NCBI GenBank assembly: GCA_964416905.1
Contig: CAYQFL010000001.1
Span: 94,647-158,646, forward strand
Direction: 5' to 3'
DNA: 64,000 bases
Origin: an uncultured Methanosarcinales archaeon
Lineage (GTDB): Archaea; Nanobdellota; Nanobdellia; Woesearchaeales; JASKKU01
Positions 8,471-51,703 of the stretch are shown here, piece after piece; the first letter of the stretch is position 1; each line of letters starts with the position of its first letter. A program made the translations under genes and the position numbers. Below the pieces are notes generated by a model. The model saw nothing but the letters and a program-made list of their open reading frames with translations, was not told where the DNA came from and did not search any database.

Positions 8471-8533
8471 TCTTACCCCCCTCTTTTTTTTTCAAAGTAA
8501 AAAATAAACATAAACAAATAACAAAATCTCAAA

Positions 8534-9820
8534 CTAATTTTTATTTGCCAACTTGACTTTTTTAGTTTCTCTTTGCTTACTTTTCTTTTCAGTTTTACTC
8601 TTTTTTTCCGGGTTTAAATCGGATTTGAACTCTTTTATTGCTTTTTCTCTCTTCAAAGCATTTATTCTTTCTTTTATGTCCTGAAAAATATTCATAAAAA
8701 AAATAAACGCTTCATAAGGACTTTCATAAGGGTTAAAGTATTTATGAACATCTCCATCCGAAAAATATTTAGTGCACATATAATAAAAATGATCTGAAGT
8801 CTGGAGCTTTCTCCAATCTTCAAGTAAACTTTTATCATTCAGTTCTTTAATCTCTTTCTCGATAGAATAAATCTTTTCTAATGCGGAATCCTGCATAGCA
8901 TTACTTCTCCAAGCAGAGATATCTCTTTCTATATCCGCCCAGGAAATTAAATGTGGTACATCAACTTCGCCAACAGGGTTGAATTTTTCGATTGCTAAAG
9001 ATGGTGTAGTAAATGAATGGCCTTCCTCAAGCAATTTTTTAGGTAAATGCTTCATAAAATCAAAAATTCCTGTATCCTTCCATTGATGTTCACCAAAGGT
9101 TTCATAATCCATAAACAAGTTTAGAATCTGACCATCAATAGCATTTACCCAAGCCACATATTTTTCAACTGTTAACGGCCACTCCTTCCAATTCCTATCT
9201 GAAAATCTAAATGCGATATCATCTGAAAGCTGATAATTCTTTAACAGCAAAGGCAGCTTAGAACCTTTCGCATAATAAACATAATTAGGACTACGCCATC
9301 CAAGGATATGATCAGCACCTTCTGTAATGACTGCTTTAAAGCCCATCTTCTTGGCAACTTCAGCAAGATTGTTTTCATAAATTAACTCAGTATTCCTGAA
9401 TACAACAGGTTCTTTACCAAATAAAGATTTAACTTTCTCATAATGCAATTTAACCTGCTCAAAGAATTCAGCTATTGAATAAAGATATGCTAAGGAATGA
9501 TAATATGTTTCCCCAAGAATCTCAACATTCTCGTGAGAGACTAATTTCTTAAAACTATCTAAAGTATGCGGACTGTATTCTTTAAGTTGGTCTAAAAAAA
9601 CACCTGAGAAACTAAAAGTTATCTTAAACTCAGGATACTTTTCTAATAGAGTCAGCAGCAAAGAATTCATTGGTAAATAGCATTTCTTACTAACTTTCTT
9701 AATAATCTCTGCGTTCTTCTTCTTATCAAAATAATCGTGATTCCTGCCTATGTCAAAAACTCTATAATCCCTTACCCTGTAAGGTTGATGAACCTGAAAA
9801 TAAAAATTAACTTCTACCAT
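8534..9820 (-). CDS. Glycoside hydrolase family 57 protein (branching enzyme or alpha-amylase/4-alpha-glucanotransferase type)
   Basis: The N-terminus 'VNFYFQVHQPYR' matches the GH57 signature and the length fits. A Lys-rich tail is also present. Confidence 0.7.
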   Translation of the reverse strand: MVEVNFYFQVHQPYRVRDYRVFDIGRNHDYFDKKKNAEIIKKVSKKCYLPMNSLLLTLLEKYPEFKITFSFSGVFLDQLKEYSPHTLDSFKKLVSHENVEILGETYYHSLAYLYSIAEFFEQVKLHYEKVKSLFGKEPVVFRNTELIYENNLAEVAKKMGFKAVITEGADHILGWRSPNYVYYAKGSKLPLLLKNYQLSDDIAFRFSDRNWKEWPLTVEKYVAWVNAIDGQILNLFMDYETFGEHQWKDTGIFDFMKHLPKKLLEEGHSFTTPSLAIEKFNPVGEVDVPHLISWADIERDISAWRSNAMQDSALEKIYSIEKEIKELNDKSLLEDWRKLQTSDHFYYMCTKYFSDGDVHKYFNPYESPYEAFIFFMNIFQDIKERINALKREKAIKEFKSDLNPEKKSKTEKKSKQRETKKVKLANKN

Positions 9821-34572: not shown

Positions 34573-37500
34573 ATGAGATTTTCAATTTCCAATCGAACTA
34601 ATAAATTTTTGTTGTTAGCAAGTTCTGTTACACTGCTATTTCTTTTAATAAGCATAATTGGAGATTTAACAATTGTGTCTGCAGCCGATGATAATGAGTG
34701 TGGTTGCCCTGACCCTAAAGAACGTAGTCGATGTAACGAAGATTTTACTATGGTAATTACAGAACATTATTTTTGTGAAGATGGCGAGTGTAAAATGCAG
34801 GAGTTTAGTTCAGTTTGTGCTGATTCAAGTTATTGTGATGATAATGAACTTGTATATGTTGAAAGTGTTTGTGTTGCGCCAGAGTATGGAGTAGCATACT
34901 GTGACCTCAAAGAAACACGAACATCTTGTGGTTCAAATGCAAGATGCATAGTTGATAAATGTATCAAAGAACAAGACTATGAAGATTATGATTGTAAGGG
35001 TGACAATATAATTAAACGTATAGGTGTATGCTATGATGCTAATGAAGATGGTGACTGTAGAGATCCTGGTGAAGTAGATATTGAAAGAGAAGTGTTTGTG
35101 AAGGATTGTAACGACTATAATGGTTGGTACTGTTCTGGGGAAACTGGTCAAGAGTATCGAGATTATACTTGCAAAGCTGGATCCTGTACTTCTTATGAAG
35201 TTACTGACACAAGAAGTTGCCCTTCATCAGCACCTTTCTGTTGCAATAGCGATAACGCTTGTCACCAATGTTGCAAAACAGATGATTGTCATGAGATCTT
35301 TGGACTAAATTACTTCTGCAATTCAATCACAAACCAATGTCAATGCTCTCCTGAAGATAAAGAAGAATTGGGTGCGGAATGTGGCCCTAATGGTTGCGAT
35401 CCGCAAGGGTTTGGACTCTGTGATTCCGGTAAAGAATGTGTTGGAAACTTCTGTGTTGATAAAAAAGACTTTAGAACAATTGTAGGTTATCTAAAAGTCA
35501 TAGGACATAATGATAAGGAAATTCTTGTGGAATTAATCCCTTATGATTCTTATCAAGAATCTACTGCAGGCCAGTACTGCTCAAAATTAAACGAATGGTT
35601 CTTTGGAAACCAAAAATGTAAAGGTAAGGGATACAACGAATGTGGTGGCATTCCAGGCAACGATGATATTGTTAATTTTCAAGTTTCAAATTATGAACTA
35701 AAAGATCAGAGTGTTATAATAAACTGTAATCAGAGAGGCCCAATAGACGGATGGTGTGATGGCTCTTCAAGCACTCCCGATTCTCTAACAATCAAATTGT
35801 GTGACCCAAAAAGCAACGTTCCGTGCGATTCTTCAACATATCATATAAATTTAGAGAAACTAGGACTAGATATAAACTGTGTTTATCTTGACGAGGAAAA
35901 GGAGAGCGACAAAAATTGTGAGTCTGAAAGCAAACTAATTCTAAGAGCAGCTAACAATTATGAAACTTGTGATGATTCTGGAGAAGATGTTTGCATCATG
36001 GGCAGATGCGTGAAATACGTATGCTATCATAATAACAGAATAGATGGCAGCGAAAGCTGTGACCCTGTAGCGCCACAAACATATAACGCTTCTGGAACCA
36101 TAGTCACAGAGGACGACATTACATGCTCATTACTTTGGATGAACCCAAAAGATAACGATCTTTCCTTAAAACCATCGTGCCTAAAAAGTTGCGTGATTAA
36201 CACTCGAAACTGCGAGCAATTATCTAGTTTATGCGGGAACTACAAATTAGATTCAAAGGAGAATTATGACGAACTTTGCGATATAAGAGAAGAACCTTTA
36301 ATAACAAAATACCTAAATGGTAATGAAATTGAAATAACAGCACAATTTAAAGATAAACATAGTTGTGCTGAAAAAGAAGGTTACATTGGTGATGCCAGCC
36401 TGCTTTCATGCAAAGGTTGTTTAGCCATAGATTATGAGAATTGTGAACAAGAAGCCATCAGTGGAGAGGATAAAACTGAAAAAACTTGTAATGATGGTTT
36501 AAACGAAGATTACTGGTATGACCTTTTCATTCCTGAAGGGGCGGATAGATCTGAATATATTATAGATAATTATCTTAATGAATTTGGTTATTTTGATAAG
36601 GAGAAACTTAAGTTTGACACAAGCAAATGTTTTAATGAAACAAATTGCTTTGATTGCTATGATATTGATTGTGATGGCAAAGAGGCTATCGATGGAAAAC
36701 TTTGCAATTTCAAAACTGAAAGAATGTGTAATGATAATTTTGACAACGATGGTGATGGTTTAATAGATAGTGAAGATAACGACTGCAATTCAGAGGGATA
36801 TAACCCCGAATTATCCTTAAAAGGATTTTGTAGTAGTACAAAACAATGTTTTGATGATGATTTCAACGAATGCCTGCCTGAGGGTTATAAACAATCAGTA
36901 AATAATAAAATAGTAATCTGTAGTGCTGGTAGATGGATTTCAGCAATAAAAGCAGAAGCTAACTTACTTTATGAAAACGCCATAAATAAACAAAAGTTCA
37001 CATTATACTGTAATGATTTTGGTGACGCCTTTGAAGATAATCAAGGGTATGTAATTTCATTAGAAAGTAAGCTTCCGAGCGGAGATGTGCAGGTTGGCGA
37101 TTTTATGAAATCTTACGGGAGCTTTTATGGCAAGTTCTGCGCGTTCAAAAGCAATGAAGATTATGCTATTTCAACAAGGATTAAAGGACTAGAAAATGAT
37201 CCTTCAAGATTAGCATTTGCAATGCAGTTGTTCTCAACGAATCCTTCATGTTGCAATGGAATTAATGATGATTCCACAACAAAAATCTCTAAGTGCGATG
37301 AAAACATTTCAATAAACAAGAAGTATGGAATTGTAATAAAAACAAACGAAGATATTGATGGAAAAGAACTTTTAAAGACAGAAGCTATCAATGAAAAGAT
37401 AAAAGCATTAAAAGATTATCTATCAATAATAGGAATTAACAATTTCGCGAGTGATAACCTTTGGAGAGGTTCGTTAACAGAAGCGCTTGCTTGGAAGAAA

Positions 37501-37788
37501 TCTGGTGAAAAAGAATTATTTGGGATCGTTGAAAATATCAACGGCACAATTTATGCAGTGGTCCTACTTACAAATGTAGGTACCAGTTTTGAGGATTCCT
37601 GTAGCATTATAAATTCTGAACAAACAATTAAAATCGGAGAGAATCTTGCAGGAATATGTCAAAATGTAAACGACGATGACTTCATAATTCACTGGGCAAT
37701 TCATAAAGAGGTGCCTAATAAAGAAAACCTTATTAAAATCTCTTTAGACAGGTTTGATACATTAGTAAAATCTATAAAGATAAATTAA
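34573..37788 (+). CDS. Secreted Cys-rich protein, paralog A (1071 aa) of a tandem triplet; carries a DxDxDG calcium-binding-type motif
   Basis: Signal peptide (…LLISIIGDLTIVSA|ADD). A unique ~570-aa Cys-rich N-region is followed by a C-terminal ~500 aa shared with the next two ORFs ('GYIGDASLLSCKGC', 'CNDGLNEDYWYDL', 'KTERMCNDNFDNDGDGLIDSEDNDC', 'FYGKFCAFKSNEDY', C-terminal 'FDTLVKSIKIN'). Confidence 0.8.
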   Translation: MRFSISNRTNKFLLLASSVTLLFLLISIIGDLTIVSAADDNECGCPDPKERSRCNEDFTMVITEHYFCEDGECKMQEFSSVCADSSYCDDNELVYVESVCVAPEYGVAYCDLKETRTSCGSNARCIVDKCIKEQDYEDYDCKGDNIIKRIGVCYDANEDGDCRDPGEVDIEREVFVKDCNDYNGWYCSGETGQEYRDYTCKAGSCTSYEVTDTRSCPSSAPFCCNSDNACHQCCKTDDCHEIFGLNYFCNSITNQCQCSPEDKEELGAECGPNGCDPQGFGLCDSGKECVGNFCVDKKDFRTIVGYLKVIGHNDKEILVELIPYDSYQESTAGQYCSKLNEWFFGNQKCKGKGYNECGGIPGNDDIVNFQVSNYELKDQSVIINCNQRGPIDGWCDGSSSTPDSLTIKLCDPKSNVPCDSSTYHINLEKLGLDINCVYLDEEKESDKNCESESKLILRAANNYETCDDSGEDVCIMGRCVKYVCYHNNRIDGSESCDPVAPQTYNASGTIVTEDDITCSLLWMNPKDNDLSLKPSCLKSCVINTRNCEQLSSLCGNYKLDSKENYDELCDIREEPLITKYLNGNEIEITAQFKDKHSCAEKEGYIGDASLLSCKGCLAIDYENCEQEAISGEDKTEKTCNDGLNEDYWYDLFIPEGADRSEYIIDNYLNEFGYFDKEKLKFDTSKCFNETNCFDCYDIDCDGKEAIDGKLCNFKTERMCNDNFDNDGDGLIDSEDNDCNSEGYNPELSLKGFCSSTKQCFDDDFNECLPEGYKQSVNNKIVICSAGRWISAIKAEANLLYENAINKQKFTLYCNDFGDAFEDNQGYVISLESKLPSGDVQVGDFMKSYGSFYGKFCAFKSNEDYAISTRIKGLENDPSRLAFAMQLFSTNPSCCNGINDDSTTKISKCDENISINKKYGIVIKTNEDIDGKELLKTEAINEKIKALKDYLSIIGINNFASDNLWRGSLTEALAWKKSGEKELFGIVENINGTIYAVVLLTNVGTSFEDSCSIINSEQTIKIGENLAGICQNVNDDDFIIHWAIHKEVPNKENLIKISLDRFDTLVKSIKIN

Positions 37789-37806: not shown

Positions 37807-40245
37807 ATGGGATTTTTTGAAAAAAGCTCAATTTTTACAAAAGGTATAATGCCTAAAGTGTTTAAGCTTTCTTTGATTATAGCAATAATTGCTATTAGCT
37901 TGCTAATTACAAGTTGCGGTGATGACGATTCTGATGCCGCCAGTGAACCTGACGAAGACAAGATAAATAAAAACCTGTTTCTAGGTTATATTAATGTCAA
38001 TTCAGATCAAGATAATGCTCTTGTAGATTATTCAATTATTGGTAACAAATACAACCTTGCTTCATCAATTCAATTCTGCAAACTTGCTGACAACATTTAT
38101 CATCGTGGTGCTTGCGCAGGTAAGGCATGGGATGAATGCGGTTTCTGGGATTTTAAAATGAGAGATTTCTTCTACTTCACACAACTTGATAATGAAACGG
38201 CAAAGGTTACTTGCTCTCAACGAGGCATATTTGATACTTGTTCTCCGTCCGATTATTCTTCAATAAATGCAAAAATCCGCTTATGTGATAGCAATGAAAG
38301 CGATAAAAATTGTACTGCAGGTATTAATGAAATTCTTATAGACCTCAATAAACAAGGTTATGATATAGATTGTACACGGCTTTTTGCGTTAACTAGTGGA
38401 GCGGACTGTGCGCCTTCAGACTTCCTTATACTTTACCATGTTAATGACTTCCAACCATGCGATCCTTACAATGATGAACTGGTATGTGTTTGGGGGAAAT
38501 GTACAAAATATGTTTGTATCCCGAATAACAAGTTAGACCCTTACGAGCTTTGTGATCCTAAAGCACAACTCTTTAATTTAAGCGGAAGAGAAGTATCTGG
38601 TACTGCGATTAGTTGCCAAGATTTCTCAGGGGTGCCAAGCACTGAAGGAGGAAAGCCTATTTGCAGAGATGATTGCACACCAGATATCTCTGAATGCACC
38701 CTTGAGCCAGGTCAGGTGCTTTGCCAGAATAATGTGTTAGAAAGCTTTCCAGACGTGGGTTATACTGAAGTGTGTGAGTGGGGTAATGGAGAAGAGTATT
38801 ATCTTCATCCAGATGGAACTCAAAAAGAGAAACAGTATATCTTCAAAACACAGAGTTTCTGTGCTCAACAGGAAGGTTATATCGGCGATGCATCTAATTT
38901 AGAATGCGATGCTTGTACTGAAATAAACTATGACAATTGTCTAAGCGTTCAGCTCACAAAACCAAAAGAAGAAAACTGTGGTAACGGTTTAAATGACGAT
39001 TACTGGTACGATCTTTACATCGAAGGAGACAATAGAACTGAGTATATCGCAGAGAATTATCTTGATGAATATGGTTATTTTGAGGATTACAAGTTTGACA
39101 CAACAAAATGCTTCAGTGAAACAAACTGCTCTGATTGCCATGATGTTGATTGTGATGGCAGAGTTACCTTCGGAAACAATTACTGTAACTTCAAAACTGA
39201 AAGAATGTGTAACGATAACTTTGACAACGATGGCGATGGCTTAATTGATGAACAAGATAGTGATTGCAGTTTTGAAAGATATAATCCAGATTTATCGCTA
39301 AAAGGATTATGCGATGCTGAAGAGAAATGTTTTGATGAAAGTGAACTTGAATGCATAGATGACTCAGCAGTATTTACAAAGAATAATAAGGCATTTATAT
39401 GTAACGAAGGAAACTGGATTAACGAAATAAAACTTATCTCGGCCTTAAGTTATGCTAAATTAAAAAATCAACAATCCCTGGTACTTTATTGTAACGACCC
39501 CGCTGATTTCACAACTGGAAAAAGTTATGTAATCGAACTCAATTCTAAAATACGAGGTACTCAGGAGACGGTTTCCGAGTTCATAGGAACACAAGAACAA
39601 GCTAATGCACTTTATGGAAAGTTCTGCGCTGCAAAAAGTGATGACGAATATCTTCTCGGAACGATTTTAAAAAACAAAAACGAAATACATCACAGCATTT
39701 TACTATTCTACCCACTTGGAACAATATGTGATGGAATTAACAAAGATGCTGAGCAACTTCAAAGATGCAATAACACCCAAATGTTTATGAATTATAAAAC
39801 AGGTATAGTATTAAAAACAAATATCTTTAGTAGTGATCAAGTAGAATTATTTAACGGAATTAATGAAATCGATAACAAGATTAAAGAGTTAAAAAAGGCT
39901 GGCGGACAATACTTGGTGACCAATTCACTTGAAGATTTAGAGAAAACCGGAGATATTGAAGCATTTGCGTTGAAGAAAAATGAAGATAAAGAATTATTAG
40001 GTATTATCGCTAAAGTAAACTCAACTTGGTACTCTATTGTTTACATAAAAAATGTACCTTCATTTGCTGAAATTTGTAAATCTATGACTTTAAACATCGC
40101 AAGCGGAGATATGACCAGAACTGTCACTTGCAAGCAAGAAATAGGTACAAACAACTTTGTGATTGCATGGACAATACCTACAGAACAAACGTTAATCTAT
40201 TCAAAAGCCAAATTCGACGAACTAGTTAAGGAAATAAGGATTTAG
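37807..40245 (+). CDS. Secreted/lipobox-like Cys-rich protein, paralog B (812 aa)
   Basis: N-terminal anchor ending 'LLITSCGDDDSD' (lipobox-like). It aligns colinearly with paralog C along the whole length and with the C-terminal half of A. It contains 'CNDNFDNDGDGLIDEQDSDC'. Confidence 0.8.
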   Translation: MGFFEKSSIFTKGIMPKVFKLSLIIAIIAISLLITSCGDDDSDAASEPDEDKINKNLFLGYINVNSDQDNALVDYSIIGNKYNLASSIQFCKLADNIYHRGACAGKAWDECGFWDFKMRDFFYFTQLDNETAKVTCSQRGIFDTCSPSDYSSINAKIRLCDSNESDKNCTAGINEILIDLNKQGYDIDCTRLFALTSGADCAPSDFLILYHVNDFQPCDPYNDELVCVWGKCTKYVCIPNNKLDPYELCDPKAQLFNLSGREVSGTAISCQDFSGVPSTEGGKPICRDDCTPDISECTLEPGQVLCQNNVLESFPDVGYTEVCEWGNGEEYYLHPDGTQKEKQYIFKTQSFCAQQEGYIGDASNLECDACTEINYDNCLSVQLTKPKEENCGNGLNDDYWYDLYIEGDNRTEYIAENYLDEYGYFEDYKFDTTKCFSETNCSDCHDVDCDGRVTFGNNYCNFKTERMCNDNFDNDGDGLIDEQDSDCSFERYNPDLSLKGLCDAEEKCFDESELECIDDSAVFTKNNKAFICNEGNWINEIKLISALSYAKLKNQQSLVLYCNDPADFTTGKSYVIELNSKIRGTQETVSEFIGTQEQANALYGKFCAAKSDDEYLLGTILKNKNEIHHSILLFYPLGTICDGINKDAEQLQRCNNTQMFMNYKTGIVLKTNIFSSDQVELFNGINEIDNKIKELKKAGGQYLVTNSLEDLEKTGDIEAFALKKNEDKELLGIIAKVNSTWYSIVYIKNVPSFAEICKSMTLNIASGDMTRTVTCKQEIGTNNFVIAWTIPTEQTLIYSKAKFDELVKEIRI

Positions 40246-40270
40246 TCGAAATTTTTAACTGCCTTTTTAG

Positions 40271-42640
40271 GTGAAAAACATGAATTTTTTTGAAAAGAAA
40301 TCCAATTTAAAGGCGAATCTAAATGCGGGTAGATTATTTTTACTGCTTTTAGTAGTGATTGTTGTAAGCTTACTAAATGCAAGTTATGTGAACGCTAGGG
40401 TAATTGGATATGTGAGCATAAACCCTAACCAGTGGAACAATGTAATTGATTATTCTGTTAGCAGCTCGTCTACCCAAGCCACTTCAGCTAAATTTTGCGA
40501 CCTGGCAGACAACCTGTTTAATAATAACGGATGTGGAGACAAAACATGGGGAGAATGTGATTTCTGGGATTTTCAAATGAAGGATTATGTGTATTTTGAA
40601 AATATAAACGACAACGAAGTGGGCCTTACTTGTTCTCAACGGGGACTATTTGATGGCTGTTCAGGTTCTTCTGCTTTTTATCCAACAATAAAATTATGTG
40701 ATAGCAGTTATGAAAATTGTGTTGCTAATAGTGGTGAAATTGTTATAGACCTTAAAAAAGTGGGTTTATCTAAGAAGTGTACAAGGCTTGGTGCTAGCAC
40801 ATCTGGCGACGAATGTTCACCTGACGACACACTCAAACTTTATACAAAGAACAACTATGAAGTATGCGCTGAAACTCCTGAAGGTGCAGATTATGAACTA
40901 AGATGTATAAGTGGAAAATGTGCAAGGTATCAGTGCATAAACGACAACTATCAATTAGACCCGTATGAGCCTTGTGATCCGGGAGTACAAAAATTCAATG
41001 TAGGTGGTGAAATAAAAACTGCGGACGAGATTACATGTTTGGATTTTGATATGTATCCAAATAGTGAGGGAGAAAGACCAATCTGCGGTAATGATTGTAA
41101 ACCTGACCTTAGTATGTGCACATCTCAACCAAGCCTTTGCCCAGATTATAAAATTGAAAAATACAATGTACTGGATTATGTCGAAAAATGCGATTTAGCT
41201 AAAACTCCTGAAAGTTATGTTCATCCTGACGGAACCAAGAAAACAAAACAACATATATTCTCATCAAAAGCATTTTGTGCTCAACAGGAAGGTTATATCG
41301 GTGATGCTTCATATTTAGAATGCGAGGGTTGTACTGAAATCAGCTATGATGCTTGCCCAACAGTTCAACTCACAAAACAAAAAGAGCAAAATTGCGGGAA
41401 TGGTTTAAATGACGATTACTGGTACGATCTTTACATCGAAGGAGACAATAGAACTAAGTATATCGCAGAGAATTATCTTGATGAGCAAGGTTATTTTGAG
41501 AATTATAAGTTTGACACAAGCAGATGTTTTAGTGAAACGAATTGCTCTGATTGTTATGATATTGATTGCGACGGCAAAGTCACTTACGATGGTAAATACT
41601 GTAACTTCAAAACTGAAAGAATGTGTAACGATAACTTTGACAACGATGGTGACGGCTTAATTGATGAACAAGATAGTGATTGCAGTTTTGAAAGATATAA
41701 TCCACATTTATCGCTAAAAGGATTATGCGATGCTGAAGAGAAATGTTTTGATGAAAGTGAACTTGAATGCATAAATGATTCAGAGGTTTTTGTGAAAGAC
41801 AAAACGTTTGTATGTAAAGATGGAAACTGGATTAATGAAATAAAACTCATCTCAGCGCTAACTTATGATAAGCTAAAAGATCAACAATCATTAATACTTT
41901 ATTGTAACGACCCCGCAGATTTCACAAACCAAAGAGGTTACGTAATTGACATCATGAATACTAAAACTGCAACCGGTATGAACACATTTGATTTCATGTC
42001 ATCTCAGAGAGCGTTATATGGAAAATTCTGTGCAGCGAAAACGGATGATTATTATCTCATAGGAACTGTTTTAAAAAGCAAAGAGGCAATAAGTAATGCA
42101 GTACTCTTATTTAATTCAAATGGAACAATATGTGATGAGATTACAAACAACGATAACATATTACATCAATGTAAGAACACTCAAGTTTTCTTAAACTATA
42201 AAACAGGCATACTATTAAAGACAAATATCTTTAATGATGGAGCACAATTATTTAACGGAATTAATGAAATAAATACCAAGATTGAAGAGTTAAAAAGCGC
42301 GGGCGAGCCTTATCTAGGATATAACTCACTTCAAGACCTAGAAAAAAGCGGAGAAATTGAAGCGTTTGCGTTAAAGAAAAGTGGGGAGAAAGAACTACTG
42401 GGTATAATTGCTAAAGTAAACTCAACTTGGTATGCCATTGTTTACATAAAAAATGTGCCATCCTTTACTGAAGTTTGTGACACTATGAACGAAAAAGCAA
42501 CCTTAACGATAGTAGATACGCCAATTAAATGCCAGGAAATTAACAACAATTTTGTAATCGCTTGGAGAATAGCTGATGAATCAGTGTTGGAAGAGTCTAA
42601 GTATAAATTCGACAAACTAGTTAAAGAATTAAAGCTATGA
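40271..42640 (+). CDS. Secreted Cys-rich protein, paralog C (789 aa)
   Basis: Signal peptide (…LLNASYVNA|RV). It is highly similar to paralog B and includes a ~380-bp near-identical nucleotide stretch. Confidence 0.8.
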   Translation: MKNMNFFEKKSNLKANLNAGRLFLLLLVVIVVSLLNASYVNARVIGYVSINPNQWNNVIDYSVSSSSTQATSAKFCDLADNLFNNNGCGDKTWGECDFWDFQMKDYVYFENINDNEVGLTCSQRGLFDGCSGSSAFYPTIKLCDSSYENCVANSGEIVIDLKKVGLSKKCTRLGASTSGDECSPDDTLKLYTKNNYEVCAETPEGADYELRCISGKCARYQCINDNYQLDPYEPCDPGVQKFNVGGEIKTADEITCLDFDMYPNSEGERPICGNDCKPDLSMCTSQPSLCPDYKIEKYNVLDYVEKCDLAKTPESYVHPDGTKKTKQHIFSSKAFCAQQEGYIGDASYLECEGCTEISYDACPTVQLTKQKEQNCGNGLNDDYWYDLYIEGDNRTKYIAENYLDEQGYFENYKFDTSRCFSETNCSDCYDIDCDGKVTYDGKYCNFKTERMCNDNFDNDGDGLIDEQDSDCSFERYNPHLSLKGLCDAEEKCFDESELECINDSEVFVKDKTFVCKDGNWINEIKLISALTYDKLKDQQSLILYCNDPADFTNQRGYVIDIMNTKTATGMNTFDFMSSQRALYGKFCAAKTDDYYLIGTVLKSKEAISNAVLLFNSNGTICDEITNNDNILHQCKNTQVFLNYKTGILLKTNIFNDGAQLFNGINEINTKIEELKSAGEPYLGYNSLQDLEKSGEIEAFALKKSGEKELLGIIAKVNSTWYAIVYIKNVPSFTEVCDTMNEKATLTIVDTPIKCQEINNNFVIAWRIADESVLEESKYKFDKLVKELKL

Positions 42641-42641
42641 T

Positions 42642-43409
42642 TCAAGCTTTTGCGATAAAATAAAATATTTCATTTTTTGTTTTTTTATAATAAAAATCAA
42701 AGCTCAATCTTGACAACATTTTCTCTAACCACGTCCTTCTATGAAACCTCATATATTTACCAGACAAAGTTTTAAGCGGAAAGGAAACAATGAGATGTTT
42801 AACAGCAAGGCTTACAATTAATTCCTCAGCGTGCTTGTGCCCTTTATCTTCAATCAAATCAAGCACCTTAAACAAAAATGCAACATTGGCTTTAGGCAAT
42901 TCATCAAGTTTTGCCAAGAAATCCATCTGAACAGCCTCGCCATTAATCTGGTTCTTCAAGAAGAAATCGTTTACAGCACTAACTATGTCCTCGCGTAAAT
43001 CGCATGCAAAGTAATAATTAACCTTAATTTCGTTAAAAGGGAAATAAATCGGATTTAGCCCGCAGCCTAAATCAATAATTCTCTTTATTTTATGTTCCCT
43101 AAGGAATTCTATCACAAAATCAGGTAAAGAACCTCGCTCTAAAGAAGAAATATGCGTTCCTTTATCTTTAACATACATCACAGACTTCTTATACAATTTC
43201 GCTTTTATAAGCGAGACAAACTCTTTGAAGACCTTAGACCTCTCCAGATTTTTAACATTCAATACCTTTTCATATAGCTTTGGGTTTTTACGGACAACGT
43301 CAAAAAAAACAGATTCTATTGTCTCTTTAGAAAATGAAGAGTATCTCTTTCTCTTAGCAAGCACATTAAAAACCTCGCTAAGTACCCTTTCATCATTTAA
43401 ATGATTCAT
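42642..43409 (-). CDS. 16S rRNA (guanine1405-N7)-methyltransferase-like protein, Rmt/ArmA (FmrO) family SAM-dependent MTase
   Basis: SAM motif I 'IIDLGCGLNPIYF' (cf. RmtB 'LDIACGLNPLAL', ArmA 'ILDFGCGFNPLAL') and C-terminal 'LIVSFPLKTLSGKYMRF' (cf. 'AVSFPTRSLGGRGKGME' / 'FVISFPIKSLSGKEKGME'). The motifs are recalled from memory of the family; no search was run. Confidence 0.6.
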   Translation of the reverse strand: MNHLNDERVLSEVFNVLAKRKRYSSFSKETIESVFFDVVRKNPKLYEKVLNVKNLERSKVFKEFVSLIKAKLYKKSVMYVKDKGTHISSLERGSLPDFVIEFLREHKIKRIIDLGCGLNPIYFPFNEIKVNYYFACDLREDIVSAVNDFFLKNQINGEAVQMDFLAKLDELPKANVAFLFKVLDLIEDKGHKHAEELIVSLAVKHLIVSFPLKTLSGKYMRFHRRTWLEKMLSRLSFDFYYKKTKNEIFYFIAKA

Positions 43410-43490
43410 ACTCCTTACATAAAACTAAACAAAAGATATTTAAAAACTGTTCCATTCATAAATCATAATTTAATAATAATTACTTAAAAG

Positions 43491-45251
43491 GTGCCAAAAA
43501 TGGAAAAAAAGGTTGTCCCTGAGGAAATAAATCAGGAGTTAGAAAAGATGCAAAAGATGCTTGATAAGTTCAAAGAAAAAGTTTTAGAGAAATTCAGCGA
43601 TTATGTTTTAGGCATATCTCTTCTGCCTCCGCAAAAAAACGAAAAAGGAGAGAAAAAAGACAACAAAATTAACCTTCTAATTCTAATAAACGATAACGAT
43701 ACCAAGAAGATGACTCCTCAGGAACTGGAAAAGAAACTTAACACAATCTTTCAAAACATGGCTAAAGAGATAGACGAAAGGTTAAATCCTTCTTGTTTGC
43801 TAATCAGTGAACTATGGCAGAACTGTTATGAAGCCAAGTACGATTTCGTGAAGATGATTGCCACTGGTGCAGCCATTTATGATAAAGGCATGCTTTCTGC
43901 CATAAAAATTGCTGAAGTCCATAAAACCATGGTTCTAAGCAAATTTGAGAGATACATTGTCTCGTATGTTCTATCCGGGTCAATAACTCAAGGAAGAGCC
44001 ACAGAGAAATCTGATGTTGATGTGTTTGTTGTGGTTGACGACACAGATGTAAAAAAGATGACTCGAGGCGAATTGAAAGAGAAATTAAGAGCTATCATTT
44101 TAGGTATGGGCATTGAAGCAGGAGAAGCCACAGGGATACTGAATAAATTGAATATTCAAGTCTACATATTAACTGAGTTCTGGGAATCTCTTAGAGATGC
44201 CAACCCTGTAATATTTACTTTGTTAAGATATGGTGTGCCTTTCTATGACAGAGGTATATTCATGCCCTGGAAGCAGTTATTGCTTATGGGAAAGATAAAG
44301 CCAAGCAGAGAAGCTATTGATATGTTTATGAGCAGCGGTGAGAGAATCATCAAAAACGTTAAAACAAAAATAACTGAGATAGGTATGGAAGATATTTACT
44401 ATGCATTACTAACTCCTTCCCAAGCAGCATTAATGCATTACGGAATTGCGCCACCCACTCCTAAAGAAACGCCTAAACTAATGCGCGAAATCTTTGTGGA
44501 AAAAGAAAAATTATTGAAAGAAGAAGAGATATTAATCTTAGAAAGAGTCATCTCTTTAAGAAAAGCTGTTGAACACAAACAAAAGAGTAGAATCACTGGA
44601 AAAGAAATTGATGAATTGTTGGAAGAGGGCGAGAATTACCTTAAGAACATTGGTAAACTGTTTAGCAAGATCGACAACATAAAAAGCAAAGAATCATTAT
44701 CTCAATTGATTAGTTCAATAAAACTCATCATGCGTAAACTATTATTCTATTTTGGGTTCAAAAAAGTTGACGATAAATCCCTATTAACAACCTTCAAAAA
44801 AGAGCTAATTGACAGCGGCGAGATTGAAGAGAAATACTTCAAGACCATAAAAGAAGTTCTAAGCGCAGAAAATAGTAAAAAACAACTAAAGAAACAGGAT
44901 GTTGAGTTGCTAATTAAGAAAGGTGATTCTGCAATAAAAGCTCTACAAGATTACTTCGAAAAGAAGAGATTCTTTGATATTGAAAGAGCAAAAATCAGAG
45001 TAAGCTATGGAAAAGACAAGGTTGGTGAAGTGTTGTTCACAAAAAACAAAGTTTACATTATCAAAGATATAAAAGAAAAAAATTGTTTTGTCAGCGATTT
45101 GAAAAAATGGGAACTTAAAGAAATTAGCTTCGACCAATTAGATTCAGAAATCAGAGACGAGAAAACTGAGCTAAAGAAAGAAATAAGTGTTGATGAGTTA
45201 AACAAAATAAAAGAGACCTTTGGAAAAACTTGTAAAATAATACTAAAATAA
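43491..45251 (+). CDS. Tandem nucleotidyltransferase-fold protein (one degenerate and one intact pol-beta NTase domain) with a helical C-terminal region, possibly HEPN-like
   Basis: The second repeat has the canonical 'GSITQGRATEKSDVDVFVVVDD' (GS…DxD) motif. The first repeat aligns with it ('KINLLILINDNDTKKM' vs 'DVDVFVVVDDTDVKKM') but has lost the catalytic residues. The C-terminal part contains 'RKAVEH' (R-x4-H). Confidence 0.5.
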   Translation: MPKMEKKVVPEEINQELEKMQKMLDKFKEKVLEKFSDYVLGISLLPPQKNEKGEKKDNKINLLILINDNDTKKMTPQELEKKLNTIFQNMAKEIDERLNPSCLLISELWQNCYEAKYDFVKMIATGAAIYDKGMLSAIKIAEVHKTMVLSKFERYIVSYVLSGSITQGRATEKSDVDVFVVVDDTDVKKMTRGELKEKLRAIILGMGIEAGEATGILNKLNIQVYILTEFWESLRDANPVIFTLLRYGVPFYDRGIFMPWKQLLLMGKIKPSREAIDMFMSSGERIIKNVKTKITEIGMEDIYYALLTPSQAALMHYGIAPPTPKETPKLMREIFVEKEKLLKEEEILILERVISLRKAVEHKQKSRITGKEIDELLEEGENYLKNIGKLFSKIDNIKSKESLSQLISSIKLIMRKLLFYFGFKKVDDKSLLTTFKKELIDSGEIEEKYFKTIKEVLSAENSKKQLKKQDVELLIKKGDSAIKALQDYFEKKRFFDIERAKIRVSYGKDKVGEVLFTKNKVYIIKDIKEKNCFVSDLKKWELKEISFDQLDSEIRDEKTELKKEISVDELNKIKETFGKTCKIILK

Positions 45252-45274: not shown

Positions 45275-46360
45275 CTATATTAATGCTGAGAAGAACGAAC
45301 TTAATACCTTTACCAATATTGTAAAAAGTGTGAGAGAAGCTGCTAAAAAAGCAGGGATGTATTTTATACCTGATTTTAGATTACCATCCTTTATCTGAGA
45401 AATAATAAAAGCAGAGAAAATCGATGTTATCGATAAAACTGCATAAGCCAAATTAATGAATTCTTCCGGAGTCATGGTTGGCTCATCTACTTCAGTTATA
45501 CCTTTTAACATCTGTGTAATACCGGAGCCTCCAGCAACACTTAACGAAGACAAGTTCGCCTGACTTATTTTTGAAATAAAACTCTGTAGAATTACTAAGA
45601 ACTGTGTTGATAACGCAAAAAGAAACGGTGCCACAAAAACAACGATTATCACTATGAAAATAACATAACTAAGATTTGTTGCTGCAATATCTTTTTTTAG
45701 CTGAAAAGTATCAACTAATTCAGATGTAATCATATCTACGATAGGTGTTATTTTCGCACCGCTTTCTAAAGATTCTGCTATAATTGAGAAAGTCCTCTTG
45801 ATCTCAGCAGAATCATATTTGTTAGCAAAAGTCATGAGTGCTGACGCAGTATCTTCACCTATAGAAATTCGCTTTACAACCAACTGCATCTCTTTTGCTA
45901 AATCCCCAAACTCTGGCTTGATTGAATTCCACAAAGCTTGCTCTAATGTTGTACCGCCTTTAAGATTTTCAGATAGGGACTTTAGGAAATCTGGCAATAA
46001 TGCTTCCATTCTCCTGGTTCTTTGGAACGCTTGATAATCAAAGAAAAGTAGAATCCCTGAAACAACGATAAAAAAATACAGCGCTAAATACGAGATTGTA
46101 ACTACAAATATAGACAAAGGTTGAAGCACAACCATCGAGGTAACATCATAAAATCCAAAAACAGTTGTCAAATCAACATTATACACAAACCACAAGTCTA
46201 CAAAAATTACAGAAACTAAACCCAAAAGAAATAGTATACCTAGAATAAAATACGGTGGACTATCAAAACCCGCTTTGATAGAATTTTCGATTAATCCTTT
46301 TCTTAAACGAGTCGGAAATAGAGACTCGCCAAAACTTTTGAAAGTTCGTTTAAAATCCAT
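45275..46360 (-). CDS. FlaJ/TadC-like type II secretion system F-domain membrane protein (pilus/archaellum platform, C-terminal half)
   Basis: Polytopic membrane protein with a cytoplasmic helical T2SSF-like segment. It lies in an operon with a FlaI-like ATPase. Confidence 0.55.
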   Translation of the reverse strand: MDFKRTFKSFGESLFPTRLRKGLIENSIKAGFDSPPYFILGILFLLGLVSVIFVDLWFVYNVDLTTVFGFYDVTSMVVLQPLSIFVVTISYLALYFFIVVSGILLFFDYQAFQRTRRMEALLPDFLKSLSENLKGGTTLEQALWNSIKPEFGDLAKEMQLVVKRISIGEDTASALMTFANKYDSAEIKRTFSIIAESLESGAKITPIVDMITSELVDTFQLKKDIAATNLSYVIFIVIIVVFVAPFLFALSTQFLVILQSFISKISQANLSSLSVAGGSGITQMLKGITEVDEPTMTPEEFINLAYAVLSITSIFSAFIISQIKDGNLKSGIKYIPAFLAASLTLFTILVKVLSSFFSALI

Positions 46361-46367
46361 TTTCGCA

Positions 46368-47189
46368 TCATAGATTAATAGTTGGTCTGTTAACTTTTAT
46401 CATAACAATGAAAAAGTATTCAACTAATGCTAAAAACAACAAAATAACGCCATAAAAAAAGGGGCTAATCTCTATTCCAAGGAAAGTAAGGAATATACTT
46501 GATAGTCCAAGACCTAGCGAAGGAAAGACAACCGCTAAAACCAGGTAAAGTAAAACAATAGTGTTCAACTTTTTTCCATAAGCCTTAATTTCTATTGATA
46601 GCTCTTCTTTTATTGAATCAATCGTTTCTTTTAGAGTCTTGCCAATCTCCGCACCGGTTTTTATTGAAACAACTATAGGATACAATATCTTTTTAAACTT
46701 GATTGAAGGCGTAACCTCTCTAGCAGTTTCTAAAGCTTCTTCAACAGGAGTACCTGTATTAATTGCCATCACAATACCTTTAAAAAAATCTCCAGCTACA
46801 CCATAACTCTTAGCTGCATCATAAAGAACCTTCATCAAAGGTTCACCAGCGCTTATTTTCAATAAGATATACCTTCCAGCAAACAGAACTTCTTTATCCA
46901 GTTCTCTGCTTAAACGATAAATCTTCTGGTCTAAAGCTTTAAAATTATATTTAAAAAAAATCAAATAAAACAAAAAAAACGCTAAAGGATATAAGAACAG
47001 ATAATTGAAACTCGTGAAAAAAGCTAATGCTAAAACAATCATCGCAGAAAGCATCAAAGAAGCATTCCTGACCTTTCTTACATACTGCTGCGGAGTTAAA
47101 TCTATTTTAGCTAAAATTAATTTCCTTTTCAGATCTGCATAATTTATGGAAGCCATTTTATTTTCTATTTCGATAATACCTAGAAACAA
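46368..47189 (-). CDS. FlaJ/TadB-like type II secretion system F-domain membrane protein (platform, N-terminal half)
   Basis: '…AGRYILLKISAGEPLMKVLYDAAKSYGVAGDFFKGIVMAINTGTPVEEALETA…' is T2SSF-like. It overlaps the 3' end of the ATPase gene. Confidence 0.55.
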   Translation of the reverse strand: MFLGIIEIENKMASINYADLKRKLILAKIDLTPQQYVRKVRNASLMLSAMIVLALAFFTSFNYLFLYPLAFFLFYLIFFKYNFKALDQKIYRLSRELDKEVLFAGRYILLKISAGEPLMKVLYDAAKSYGVAGDFFKGIVMAINTGTPVEEALETAREVTPSIKFKKILYPIVVSIKTGAEIGKTLKETIDSIKEELSIEIKAYGKKLNTIVLLYLVLAVVFPSLGLGLSSIFLTFLGIEISPFFYGVILLFLALVEYFFIVMIKVNRPTINL

Positions 47190-48603
47190 GCAAACCTACT
47201 TTATTAACATCTGTTATCTTCTTTTCAACCAACCAATCTAAAAATTTCTTTTTTTCCTCTATGTTTTTGTAAACTTCTTCAGGTTTAAGTCCCGCATACA
47301 ATTGCATTGTCTCTAATAATCTTTCAGGTTTATTGAGTTGGACATACTTACCTGTCTTTAAATCATATTGAAAAATCACACGCTCATCTCCTGTTTCTGT
47401 AATTTCTGCTATTTGCAAAGTGACTCTTTTTCCAGTCCGTCTATTCCTATACTGTACCACAAGCATACCTAGTGAAGATAACATAAGTTTGGGAATATCT
47501 ATTGGCGGGTTTGTTAAACGAGATATTGCTTCCTTTGCGTTATTTGCGTGCAAAGTAGCATAAACTGAGTGACCTGTATGCATCGCTTCAAATAAAACCT
47601 CAGCTTCTCTTTTCCTCCTAATTTCTCCAACAATAATTCTGTCAGGACGCATCCTCAAAGAGTTGACAACCAAATCCAGCATCGTAACTTCGCCTTTACC
47701 CTCAGGGTTTGGCAATCTTGTTTCCATAGGCACCCAATGAAGATGTTCTGGCAAAGATAGTTCTCTGGTATCTTCAATGCTAATAATTCTTTGGTTCGCA
47801 GGGAAGAAATTACTCAATGCGTTAAGCATAGATGTCTTACCTGAACCAGTTCCACCTACGATAAGTGTGGAAAGCTCGTATTCCATAGCCAGCCAGATCC
47901 ATGCTGCGATCTCTGAATTGATTGTTTTAGTGAGAATCATATCGGTTATTGTCCAGGGTTTATCAGCAAATTTCCTTATAGTTAAAGTGTTTCCTTTAGT
48001 TGAGATGGGCGCTAAAGTCGCATTAACCCTGTCTCCTGTTTTCAAAGAAGCATCCATTAATGGTTCAAGCACAGTTATATCTTTCCCAACATCTCTACCA
48101 ATTAAAGTTGCGTAATGTCTAATCTTTCTTTCGCTATCCACATATATATTTGTCTTAACCCAACCATACTTCCTATGGTAAGCCCATACTGGCTCTTTAG
48201 CATTGTTAACAACAATTTCTTCTAAATTTTTATCATGAAGAAGGATTTCTATTTTGCCTAAACCTATGCTTTCCTGTATAAGATGATTAACTAAAAAATC
48301 CGAAGTGGGCTTATCTATATGCGGAAAGTATTTCTTTATTAAAACTTTAAGCTCATTAATAAAACTCTCCTCAAGAGATTTATAACCTCCTTCGAATGAA
48401 AAACTTATTGCACCAATATTAACTTTTGATACAAAATCCTCTTTAATTTTCTCAAGAAGCGCCTCAGTTACCTTACTTAAGTTTAGAATAGAAACCAGAT
48501 AAAATGGAACAAACTCATCTTCATAATCAACAATCCTTACACTAACTATCAGTTTGTTAAACTGAATTTCATATTCCTCTAAAAGCTTCTCTCCTCGAAC
48601 CAT
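47158..48603 (-). CDS. FlaI/TadA/VirB11-family type IV pilus/archaellum assembly ATPase
   Basis: Walker A 'GGTGSGKTSMLNAL', Asp box, Walker B and His box ('ATLHANNAKEAISRL') typical of the archaeal FlaI/GspE superfamily. Length is 481 aa. Confidence 0.85.
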   Translation of the reverse strand: MVRGEKLLEEYEIQFNKLIVSVRIVDYEDEFVPFYLVSILNLSKVTEALLEKIKEDFVSKVNIGAISFSFEGGYKSLEESFINELKVLIKKYFPHIDKPTSDFLVNHLIQESIGLGKIEILLHDKNLEEIVVNNAKEPVWAYHRKYGWVKTNIYVDSERKIRHYATLIGRDVGKDITVLEPLMDASLKTGDRVNATLAPISTKGNTLTIRKFADKPWTITDMILTKTINSEIAAWIWLAMEYELSTLIVGGTGSGKTSMLNALSNFFPANQRIISIEDTRELSLPEHLHWVPMETRLPNPEGKGEVTMLDLVVNSLRMRPDRIIVGEIRRKREAEVLFEAMHTGHSVYATLHANNAKEAISRLTNPPIDIPKLMLSSLGMLVVQYRNRRTGKRVTLQIAEITETGDERVIFQYDLKTGKYVQLNKPERLLETMQLYAGLKPEEVYKNIEEKKKFLDWLVEKKITDVNKVGLLVSRYYRNRK

Positions 48604-48604
48604 T

Positions 48605-50719
48605 TTAAACCTTCAATAAACTGTTTTTTATTTTCTCCATTTCCGAGACCATTTTTTGATATAGCTGAGTCATCTGCTCTTTGAGTTTAGCGTTCTCTTC
48701 AAAGAATCCTTGAGGCGACTTTTTCATTAATAGAACCAATTTATGGAATTGTTCACTTGCTGCATCAAACTTTTTCTCAGCAATACTCTTCTCAACATCT
48801 CTAACCAATAACTCAAACAAACGTTTAAACTTTTCATACTCCTTCTTTCTGTCAGATTCAACAGCATTTAAAACTTTAATATAAAGCAAATCTAAGTCCT
48901 TAAGTAGAGCAAGCTTAAACTCGCTGTCTCTTAAAGAATTAACAAGATTTGACATCTTTGAATAAATAAGCATCATCCGTACATAATCCTGCCGTTTCTC
49001 AGAAATCTCAAACAGATTCCTGAGTTTTAAAAACTCAGTTTTTGTTTTGTCTATAATCTGTTGGTTGTTTCTCAACTCTGCCAAGTAGATCTCAATTAGT
49101 TTTTTGAGCAACAAGCTCCTAAGTTGGTTTTTCTCAAAAGAAAACCTATCAGGAATAGAATTCACAAGTTCTTTTAATTTAACATAAAGTTGATTAAACG
49201 AATTTCTATCAGCATTAGCAATAAATTTGTCAAGCTCATTAATGCGATTATAAATATCGCTAAAGATTTTGTTTATTCTTTCTTTATTCTCTTCAAGGTA
49301 TTTTTCTATTAGTTGTGATTCAAGGGAATAAATCTCTTTAGCCAATTCCACCTTCTTTAAAACAAAATATTTGTTACTTATCGAAGACAAGTTTGTTTTT
49401 ACCTGAGAGAGTAAAGCAAGTGCTTCTTCAAGGTTTCCTTCATCATACAAGCGTTGTATTTTAACTAATGAAACTTGGATTTTTTTAAGTGATTCTTGCT
49501 CTTTAGAAAGTTGTTCATCATTTTCATTCTGCAATTCACTTAGGTCTGATTGTGTTTTTGTATCAACACTCATTTTAACTTGAGGATTTCTAGTGGCAGC
49601 ATTATTTTGACTCTTAGAAATTTCTGTATCAAGCTTTTGATTAATTTCCATTAATTCATTAAATAATGCTGCCTTAAGCTGCTCAAGAGTCTTATCATCG
49701 GCTGTTGAGCTACGCTTCTCAAGAGATTTTGTTTCTCCCAAAACTTCCGAACTAAGATCTAACTTGTTAATATCAAACTTTTTTAGCAAATCGTCTTTTT
49801 GTTTCAGGAACTTTTCAAAATACTTGTCAATAGATTTTGTGTCTTCAATTTGATTTTGGAGGACATTTAATGCATCATTAAAATCCTTTTTCTGCTCATC
49901 ACTCATTTGATTAACTTCATAAAAATTCTCGTTCTCAAGAAGTCCAACAATGGCATTATAATTCTCTTCTACAGAATAGGCATCTTCTTTTCTAATACCC
50001 TCAAGCACTTTGTTCACATAATTAAACAAAGATTCTTTTTTAGAATTAATTGACAGATAATTGCGAGTCACTTGAAGTATTAGAGTTAACAGAGAATTCA
50101 AAGAAGATAATCCTTTCTCAGAGAATAATCTATAAAACACTGTAAGAGTTAAATGTATCTTCTTTAAAATTGTAAAATAATTAATCACATCTTGATCTTT
50201 GATTGCTTGCTTGGCTTTCTCAAGCAATGATTCAATCTCATTTGTTAACTCTTTAATCCTAACTTTATCATGCTCCTCTAAAGAAGATGTTGCCTGTGGC
50301 AATACTAAAAGAAATTTTTTGATATAGAGATACAAACTCTTCCACTGGACTAAATCAAGACTGAGTTCTAAAAAAATCAGTTTGTGAACCATTAATTCTA
50401 TTTCCGAGAAATGTTTTTTCAGAGATTCTGAGTCAAATGAAGCAAATTCATAATCGAAATCATTATCCTGCTCATCAGTTTCTGAAGAAGTCGATTTAGG
50501 TTTTTCTTTTTTTACTGAATCGTCAACAAATTTAACAAATGTATTTGTAAGCCTGTAATCAAAAGCGATATAACCCTCTTCTTCAAGGAAATGCAGAATT
50601 TGCTCAAGAATATCCCTTTGTATCCCTGTTTTTTTAGATAATTGATCTACACTAATTTCGCCAGAGTTCTTAATAATGTCTAAAATTGCATCAGCTTCGG
50701 TTTTGACTTCAACAACCAT
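48605..50719 (-). CDS. Winged-helix N-domain plus long coiled-coil protein (704 aa), first gene of the pilus-assembly operon; function unknown
   Basis: N-terminal 'ISVDQLSKKTGIQRDILEQILHFLEEEGYIAF' wHTH-like segment, then ~600 aa of heptad-rich E/K/L/Q sequence. Its stop abuts the FlaI start. Confidence 0.5.
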   Translation of the reverse strand: MVVEVKTEADAILDIIKNSGEISVDQLSKKTGIQRDILEQILHFLEEEGYIAFDYRLTNTFVKFVDDSVKKEKPKSTSSETDEQDNDFDYEFASFDSESLKKHFSEIELMVHKLIFLELSLDLVQWKSLYLYIKKFLLVLPQATSSLEEHDKVRIKELTNEIESLLEKAKQAIKDQDVINYFTILKKIHLTLTVFYRLFSEKGLSSLNSLLTLILQVTRNYLSINSKKESLFNYVNKVLEGIRKEDAYSVEENYNAIVGLLENENFYEVNQMSDEQKKDFNDALNVLQNQIEDTKSIDKYFEKFLKQKDDLLKKFDINKLDLSSEVLGETKSLEKRSSTADDKTLEQLKAALFNELMEINQKLDTEISKSQNNAATRNPQVKMSVDTKTQSDLSELQNENDEQLSKEQESLKKIQVSLVKIQRLYDEGNLEEALALLSQVKTNLSSISNKYFVLKKVELAKEIYSLESQLIEKYLEENKERINKIFSDIYNRINELDKFIANADRNSFNQLYVKLKELVNSIPDRFSFEKNQLRSLLLKKLIEIYLAELRNNQQIIDKTKTEFLKLRNLFEISEKRQDYVRMMLIYSKMSNLVNSLRDSEFKLALLKDLDLLYIKVLNAVESDRKKEYEKFKRLFELLVRDVEKSIAEKKFDAASEQFHKLVLLMKKSPQGFFEENAKLKEQMTQLYQKMVSEMEKIKNSLLKV

Positions 50720-51490: not shown

Positions 51491-51590
51491 GATTTTTAAG
51501 TTGTATTGCTTGCTTTTTAAAAATTTTTTTAACGTAAAACCACTTGAAATCGTAAATAATATAAATAAAACAGAAAAACTTTTTTCATAA

Positions 51591-51663
51591 GCCCTTGTAG
51601 CTCAGTCGGTAGAGCGCATCCTTGGTAAGGATGAGGCCCCGGGTTCAAGTCCCGGCAAGGGCT
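51591..51663 (+). tRNA. tRNA-Thr (anticodon GGU)
   Basis: Cloverleaf folded by eye: acceptor GCCCTTG/CAAGGGC, D-arm GCTC…GAGC, anticodon stem CATCC/GGATG with loop TTGGTAA (anticodon GGT), T-arm CCGGG-TTCAAGT-CCCGG. No CCA is encoded. Confidence 0.85.
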
Positions 51664-51703
51664 TAGCCTTCTTTTTCAAAAAATAGATAAACATATTATC
51701 CTT

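Follow-up and report, generated by a model that had tools for sequence, protein, structure and literature searches.

Proteins in which a nucleotidyltransferase (NTase) of the MNT type is fused to a HEPN domain have been read as domesticated toxin-antitoxin (TA) modules that gave protein-modifying enzymes, and fused HEPN domains are described as ones that 'typically lack' RNase residues (PMC3710099). A DPANN-specific cluster, cls.004259 (representative NEQ050), was characterized as 'MNT fused to HEPN', placed in a housekeeping context and noted as one that 'plays some important role' (Makarova, Wolf & Koonin 2019, PMC6393860). Here, we describe a protein of this kind encoded in a 64,000-nt stretch of contig CAYQFL010000001.1 (assembly GCA_964416905.1, positions 94,647 to 158,646), the whole of which is referred to below as the window. 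A single chain of 586 aa combines a dead NTase repeat, a live NTase repeat, a HEPN domain with an Rx4H motif, a degenerate second HEPN domain and a small C-terminal domain. With somewhat better than even confidence, we propose that the protein would be a domesticated MNT-HEPN module, fused and duplicated, that serves as a nucleotidyl(adenylyl)transferase on an endogenous macromolecule and packs as a pseudo-dimer with a single active site.

The window protein matches cls.004259 by description: both are MNT-HEPN fusions restricted to DPANN, unusually conserved and found in a housekeeping rather than a TA-like context (PMC6393860). It departs from that description in its duplication of a dead and a live NTase, its second HEPN domain and its C-terminal domain, and in having bacterial relatives (in genomes labelled Planctomycetota). 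By its matching description, it is a candidate member of the cluster of NEQ050; a search started from the divergent member P0204 listed 'Nanoarchaeota archaeon' relatives and no Nanoarchaeum equitans. The existence of a DPANN MNT-HEPN family was flagged in 2019 (PMC6393860), and what is new here is a clearer anatomy, namely a single chain with an internal duplication.

In its working mode, the protein resembles ANT/KNTase, MntA-HepT and GlnE/DrrA, but it stands outside these groups by score and context. With ANT(4')/KNTase, ANT(9), AadA and LinB, it shares the fold of an NTase followed by a helical HEPN-like C-domain. However, KNTase is a homodimer with composite sites, whereas the window protein has the order N-N-H-H along a single polypeptide, in which one site is dead; the helical domains of ANT enzymes lack the Rx4H motif that the window family keeps invariant; and ANT genes are mobile resistance genes, in contrast to a housekeeping, archaeal and lineage-wide gene. 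With the NCBIfam model ANT_9, the protein reached only 23 bits (cut-off 340); the Pfam families KNTase_C and DUF4037 gave no match even at E ≤ 10. MntA and HepT (type VII TA) are encoded by two adjacent genes and are patchy and mobile or island-associated, whereas the window protein is fused and duplicated in a single ORF (open reading frame) and its family is neither patchy nor mobile. The NCBIfam MntA model scored 20.8 bits (cut-off 60), and the Tyr of the HepT motif Rx4HxY, which is the AMPylation acceptor at position H+2, was absent from the window protein and from the homologues checked. The likeness to KNTase/ANT(4') and to MNT-HEPN modules put forward in the first-pass annotation, which had been made from the sequence alone, thus holds for the fold and fails at the level of family scores. 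Protein adenylyl- and uridylyltransferases of the GlnE, GlnD and DrrA type combine an NTase with a HEPN-derived helical domain, as here, and GlnE has two NTase modules, one per reaction direction. GlnE, however, is ordered N-H-N-H, whereas the window protein is ordered N-N-H-H with one NTase dead and Rx4H kept, and it contains no GlnE- or GlnD-specific Pfam domain.

The two NTase repeats aligned to each other (aa 28-135 with aa 146-260) in a BLASTP self-alignment with an E-value of 6e-9 and 27% identity over 114 aa, as the first-pass annotation had claimed. Repeat 2 was recognized by Pfam NTP_transf_2 (PF01909) at aa 150-194 with 26.5 bits (cut-off 21), and it shows the G[SG] and DxD residues, the score above the gathering cut-off and the alpha/beta fold by which Pol-beta/MNT enzymes are told. 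Residues G163, S164, D175, D177, D183, D184 and D186 were invariant in 120 of 120 close homologues, and the GSDD tetrad was kept in 82 of the 88 scorable 50%-identity cluster representatives of the wider family. Repeat 1 lacks the G[SG] and DxD of PF01909, as had also been noted before: L44-x-P46-P47 (LLPP) replaces GS and K59-x-N61 replaces DxD in all homologues aligned. L44, P46, P47 and the retained D68 were each found in 120 of 120 close homologues, and the secondary structure of repeat 1 in the AlphaFold2 (AF2) model mirrors that of repeat 2. Many homologues in the alignment carry Lys-rich N-terminal tails. Pfam 'SAP' matches in nine of 30 members were rejected as spurious, being 16-residue partial matches to the NTase helix MTRxELKxKL.

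The Rx4H motif reported earlier in a helical region, RKAVEH (aa 357-362), is present and is the only one in the protein; by itself it says little, since chance alone gives one in 8% of shuffles. R357, K358, E361 and H362 were invariant in 120 of 120 close homologues. Across the wider family, the motif takes the form [R/Y/F/W/H]-K-x-x-E-H, with R357 swapped in about half of the representatives and K358, E361 and H362 mostly persisting. Position 364 (H+2) is Q here and T, E, V, S, Q or K in homologues. An AF2 model built from 30 homologues had a mean pLDDT (predicted local distance difference test) of 83 (83 and 87 for the AF2 models) and showed the four-helix up-down bundle of a HEPN domain. 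Foldseek searches against the PDB with the model returned ANT(9), ANT(4')/KNTase, Hailong HalB, AadA and LinB at E-values from 9e-5 to 1e-2, and also matched the HEPN protein AF0298 with a template modelling (TM) score of 0.79. At the sequence level, the HEPN profile search placed AF0298 on top but at an E-value of 0.3; Pfam HEPN families were matched by two to four of the 30 members at E-values of 0.004-0.05; and Pfam scans in which the N- and C-terminal parts were submitted as single sequences yielded noise only. JGI names proteins of the family 'UPF0332 family / predicted nucleotidyltransferase' (COG-style).

The second HEPN domain was visible only by fold search, and a profile of aa 366-586 gave nothing beyond coiled-coil noise against PDB sequences. 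Profile-profile comparison of the two HEPN domains with hhalign gave an E-value of 2.1e-5 and a probability of 77%, with RKxxEH aligned to a degenerate 'AKKDYD'. The C-terminal domain, modelled with strands at 501-545 followed by two helices (pLDDT 83-90), had no Pfam or PDB sequence match. Taken together, the self-alignment, the Pfam NTase match, the AF2 and Foldseek folds and the HEPN1-HEPN2 alignment support the architecture NTase(dead)-NTase(live)-HEPN(Rx4H)-HEPN(degenerate)-small C-terminal domain in one chain. The HEPN-like tail proposed in the first-pass annotation is therefore supported by fold; HEPN2 and the C-terminal domain had been missed. By motif and predicted fold, the protein belongs to the Pol-beta/MNT and HEPN superfamilies.

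The distribution of the family was assessed with several searches. A word-indexed protein search returned >3580 proteins of ~600 aa; the best 120 of them were 50-80% identical to the query, and most of the named ones came from Woesearchaeota, Nanoarchaeota or DPANN. When the 50%-identity cluster representatives were searched exhaustively with a profile, 880 clusters were found, 274 of them below 1e-30, which indicates that the double NTase-HEPN family is compact. At least 569 GTDB species-representative genomes encode it, with titles that are essentially throughout Woesearchaeota, Nanoarchaeota or Nanoarchaeia, and identity across the Woesearchaeota lineage is 50-58%. No match to the protein was found by tblastn among 72,556 plasmids or among 50,697 phage records. 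Within the syntenic block around the gene, the NTase-HEPN protein was 80% and 58% identical to its counterparts in two relatives, compared with 88% and 70% for the pilus ATPase, 73-79% and 48-58% for the pilus membrane proteins, 54% and 43% for the FmrO-like protein encoded upstream and 43-46% and 28-29% for large secreted proteins; it thus ranked second in conservation, after the pilus ATPase. Given its presence in at least 569 genomes of one lineage, its identity level, the lack of plasmid and phage matches and its local conservation rank, the family behaves as a housekeeping, lineage-wide and chromosomally stable one under purifying selection. DPANN genomes are tiny, and nearly every strongly conserved gene in them is expected to matter; among the lineage-specific genes of Woesearchaeota, the one for this protein of ~600 aa ranks with the best conserved.

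Such a distribution bears on whether the protein could still be a self-contained TA or defence module, in which HEPN1 would be an active Rx4H RNase toxin that the fused MNT keeps in check, by AMPylation or sterically, until stress or virus infection frees it. We regard this as distinctly improbable. TA systems are patchy, whereas this family is found in a housekeeping context throughout one lineage at 50-58% identity and was met on neither plasmids nor phages. HEPN RNases need two juxtaposed Rx4H motifs, and here there is a single one per chain; about half of the wider family lacks R357, although the NTase site was retained; and the HepT Tyr is missing, position 364 being Q, T, E or K. PADLOC-DB 2.0 gave no full-length match: PDC-S09 and PDC-M05A (MNT-like) cover only aa ~141-220, at E-values from 5e-7 to 1e-3, and the matches span only the ~50-80-aa NTase core. 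The invariance of Rx4H in the Woesearchaeota clade nevertheless points the other way, and HEPN1 may, on that ground, have retained an RNase or RNA-binding role. We favour descent from a TA module, probably followed by conversion to the present housekeeping enzyme. The anatomy suggests a testable case of the 'domestication' of a conflict system and a target for biochemistry in archaeal dark matter.

Genes downstream of the family were counted in 62 loci with at least 1.5 kb of downstream sequence. A CBS-pair protein of ~185 aa was encoded directly downstream on the same strand in 30 of these loci, and two mutually paralogous proteins of ~170 aa, also on the same strand, in 22-23 of them; at least one of the three was present in 40 of the 62. 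The ~170-aa paralogues had no Pfam or PDB match and hence offer no functional clue, and none of the three proteins is encoded in the 64-kb window. Together with the family gene, they form a possible conserved operon. The paralogues were found at positions 8120-9156 of locus L005, 7905-8941 of L007 and in ~22 more loci (e.g., L013, L018, L021, L033, L077 and L082), often after the CBS-pair gene. On the 1.84-Mb Woesearchaeota chromosome OY970338.1 (L006 8028-9034, the same as L053 6989-7992), a separate winged helix-turn-helix NTase (PF01909, E-value 1e-9) and a 154-aa protein are encoded after the family gene; together they resemble a two-gene MNT-type module of the classical kind, next to the fusion.

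Some relatives are longer, at 1100-1340 aa, with ~750 aa of N-terminal TPR repeats. Metagenome-assembled genomes (MAGs) labelled Phycisphaerae/Planctomycetota encode two relatives (L090 8001-12600 and L091 8001-10785), one TPR-armed and one of 598 aa, both followed by a gene for a calcineurin-like metallophosphoesterase. The HEPN motif is degenerate in these two proteins (RKxxEY and CKxxEA). Their first NTase is already dead, and the N-N-H-H core is therefore older than the archaeal clade. With an integrase, a D12 DNA methyltransferase, a large helicase and DUF6088 nearby, the L090 gene seems to lie in a mobile or defence island.

As to mechanism, we envisage that the two NTase and two HEPN domains would pack as an intramolecular pseudo-dimer, like the KNTase homodimer or the MNT2-HEPN2 complex, with a single active site. 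NTase2 (G163 and S164, D175 and D177, and the D183/D184 cluster) would bind a Mg-NTP (nucleoside triphosphate), probably ATP, and an acceptor bound to HEPN1 would receive the nucleoside monophosphate on one of its hydroxyls. K358, E361 and H362 of HEPN1, with R357, would hold this acceptor, or its phosphate, and activate it without cutting RNA, provided that HEPN1 lies close to NTase2, as we infer. The dead NTase1 and the degenerate HEPN2 would act as a scaffold or as substrate-binding surfaces. That the HEPN motif serves the transferase, and is not a classical RNase site, is argued by the same single Rx4H, dispensable R357 and missing Tyr that speak against a toxin.

An endogenous macromolecule is the likeliest acceptor, and AMPylation of a regulatory protein (GlnE/MntA/DrrA-like) is favoured over the tailing of RNA 3'-ends. 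This preference is based on the closest sequence matches to the NTase core, all of them sub-threshold, which were DrrA (PDB, E-value 0.006), SidM_N, Adenyl_cycl_N and DUF294 in members of the family, and MntA; on the TPR arms of the bacterial relatives; and on the CBS-pair partner. CBS pairs typically bind adenosine nucleotides. An RNA 3'-end nucleotidyltransferase for tailing, repair or CCA-like addition, in which the HEPN and C-terminal domains hold the RNA while the NTase extends its 3'-OH, is the main alternative; it is in our judgement unlikely, though it can call on several observations. The HEPN fold typically binds or cleaves RNA (PMC3710099). Weak MTPAP-like palm matches were obtained in 27 of 30 members, but they were sub-threshold and did not extend beyond the NTase core. 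The top fold matches included HalB, which synthesizes oligo-dA without a template, and the Lys-rich N-terminal tails of homologues fit an RNA substrate. A tRNA-Thr gene in the window has no encoded CCA, so that the genome needs a CCA-adding activity somewhere; the protein, however, showed no similarity to the neck, body and tail domains of archaeal CCA-adding enzymes or to the RNA-binding domains of poly(A) polymerases. RpS2, NFACT (NFACT-R), RIO kinase, Dus and HisRS were encoded near more distant homologues in other genomes, but such translation-related neighbours were inconsistent between genomes and are often to be expected in small ones.

Several points weigh against a protein-AMPylating descendant of a TA module, which we nevertheless prefer. 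Rx4H is invariant across the Woesearchaeota clade although fused HEPN domains usually lose their RNase residues (PMC3710099). The similarity to DrrA, GlnE and MntA is limited to the NTase core and is sub-threshold, and the sequence relation between HEPN1 and HEPN2 is moderate, at the 77% probability given above. The Lys-rich tails and the translation neighbours would suit an RNA or ribosome substrate equally well. A bolder version of the preferred reading, possible though rather doubtful, is an essential DPANN-specific regulatory enzyme with a live NTase and a still-functional HEPN site, which would, for example, nucleotidylate or process a component of the translation apparatus (ribosome, tRNA or a translation factor) according to an adenylate status that the CBS protein encoded alongside it would sense. 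If this is true, symbiotic archaea with reduced genomes would have a housekeeping control of a new type.

Table 1. Features of the NTase-HEPN gene and its divergent neighbour (window coordinates; domain functions are predicted).
Feature	Position	Strand	Basis
Tandem NTase / tandem HEPN gene	43491..45251	+	ORF list; 586 aa from GTG 43491
NTase repeat 1, catalytically dead, aa ~11-140	43521..43910	+	self-alignment, residue counts, AF2
NTase repeat 2, predicted active MNT-type, aa ~141-262	43911..44276	+	Pfam NTP_transf_2, motif
Catalytic motif G163-S164...D175-x-D177...D183-D184-x-D186, GSITQGRATEKSDVDVFVVVDDTD	43977..44048	+	residue counts
HEPN domain 1, UPF0332-like four-helix bundle, aa ~263-366	44277..44588	+	
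R357-K358-A-V-E361-H362 motif (Rx4H, RKAVEH)	44559..44576	+	residue counts
HEPN-like domain 2, degenerate, long helices, without Rx4H, aa ~367-500	44589..44990	+	
Small C-terminal beta-rich alpha/beta domain, aa ~501-586	44991..45248	+	AF2 model
Divergent intergenic region, 81 bp, A+T-rich	43410..43490	.	TATA-like TTTAAAA and TTTAATA elements in sequence
FmrO/Rmt-like S-adenosylmethionine methyltransferase	42642..43409	-	PF07091, NCBIfam Rmt_gen

The gene is transcribed divergently from one for an FmrO/Rmt-like methyltransferase across 81 bp, in line with the ~80-bp gap reported in the first-pass annotation, which had seen in the two genes a possible resistance-like or defence-like pair with an ArmA-like methyltransferase. 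Under this explanation, an aminoglycoside or lincosamide nucleotidyltransferase would work in resistance alongside a homologue of the 16S rRNA G1405 methyltransferases. The methyltransferase scored 46 bits against PF07091 (FmrO; cut-off 27) and 104 bits against NCBIfam Rmt_gen (16S m7G1405), under the cut-off of 250 for resistance Rmt enzymes. It has ~180 homologues, mostly in Woesearchaeota and Nanoarchaeota, at 30-45% identity and on contigs of up to 831 kb. Judging by these matches, it looks like an intrinsic chromosomal rRNA methyltransferase of the lineage, not an acquired resistance gene. A weak PADLOC match of the methyltransferase to 'mad2' (E-value 1e-4) was also seen.

Whether related genomes conserve the pair was assessed in the 70 species-representative loci whose upstream sequence spans 900 bp or more. 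The methyltransferase adjoined the NTase-HEPN gene in three of them, the three closest relatives (79, 79 and 57% identity). The closest relatives, at identities of 80%, 79%, 79%, 58% and 57%, have the methyltransferase gene as divergent neighbour within a block that is collinear throughout, pilus genes included. More distant members carry an NFACT-R protein, RpS2, DUF378 or uncharacterized genes upstream. As adjacency is confined to 3/70 loci with whole-block synteny and the methyltransferase is widespread on its own, the arrangement is a lineage-specific accident of gene order and not a conserved functional pair. A role in resistance is very improbable for the same reasons, and also in view of the failed ANT_9, KNTase_C and DUF4037 comparisons, the absence of homologues from the plasmids searched and a lineage-wide, highly conserved distribution unlike that of resistance genes. 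With no full-length PADLOC match either, the locus is very probably neither a resistance nor a defence locus, and a false lead is removed.

Translation of the NTase-HEPN gene probably starts at ATG 43500 (583 aa) rather than at GTG 43491, because a Shine-Dalgarno-like GGTG lies 6 nt upstream of this ATG and because an identical (100%) database protein of 583 aa begins there; the GGTG is overlapped by the GTG start of the ORF finder (43491-43502). The TTTAAAA and TTTAATA elements in the intergenic region may have a promoter role. The source is a Woesearchaeota-type DPANN archaeon: the closest named homologues (80% identity) came from 'Candidatus Woesearchaeota archaeon' MAGs, and the G+C content is ~33%. 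Records of co-assembly MAGs ('binchicken' / SRP; loci L011, L012, L017, L019 and others) are titled 'uncultured Methanosarcinales archaeon', and these loci are collinear with Woesearchaeota genomes and 50-79% identical. The 'Methanosarcinales' labels on such records are probably wrong.

The surroundings in the window are those of an ordinary chromosome, with DnaK, DnaJ, FKBP, TatD, Taw1-like and MiaB-like radical-SAM enzymes, tRNA-Thr and a type IV pilus cluster; together with the RpS2, NFACT, RIO, Dus and HisRS genes near homologues, they make up the housekeeping context of the family. The tRNA-Thr(GGT) gene, whose 3' CCA is not genomically encoded, lies at 51590-51664 (+). The archaeal type IV pilus/Tad-like cluster (45275-50719, -) comprises genes for two T2SSF membrane proteins, one T2SSE ATPase and a coiled-coil-rich protein of 704 aa, for which a Pfam search gave no match; the cluster is collinear in the nearest relatives. 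Two neighbouring paralogous Cys-rich proteins of ~800 aa, with N-terminal hydrophobic segments and the common motif CNDNFDNDGDGLIDEQDSDC, are encoded at 37807-42640 (+). They lie beside the type IV pilus genes, and an ORF of 1071 aa (34573-37788) precedes them; a Pfam search gave no match for any of these three proteins. The Cys-rich paralogues are fast-evolving, with 28-46% identity in relatives.

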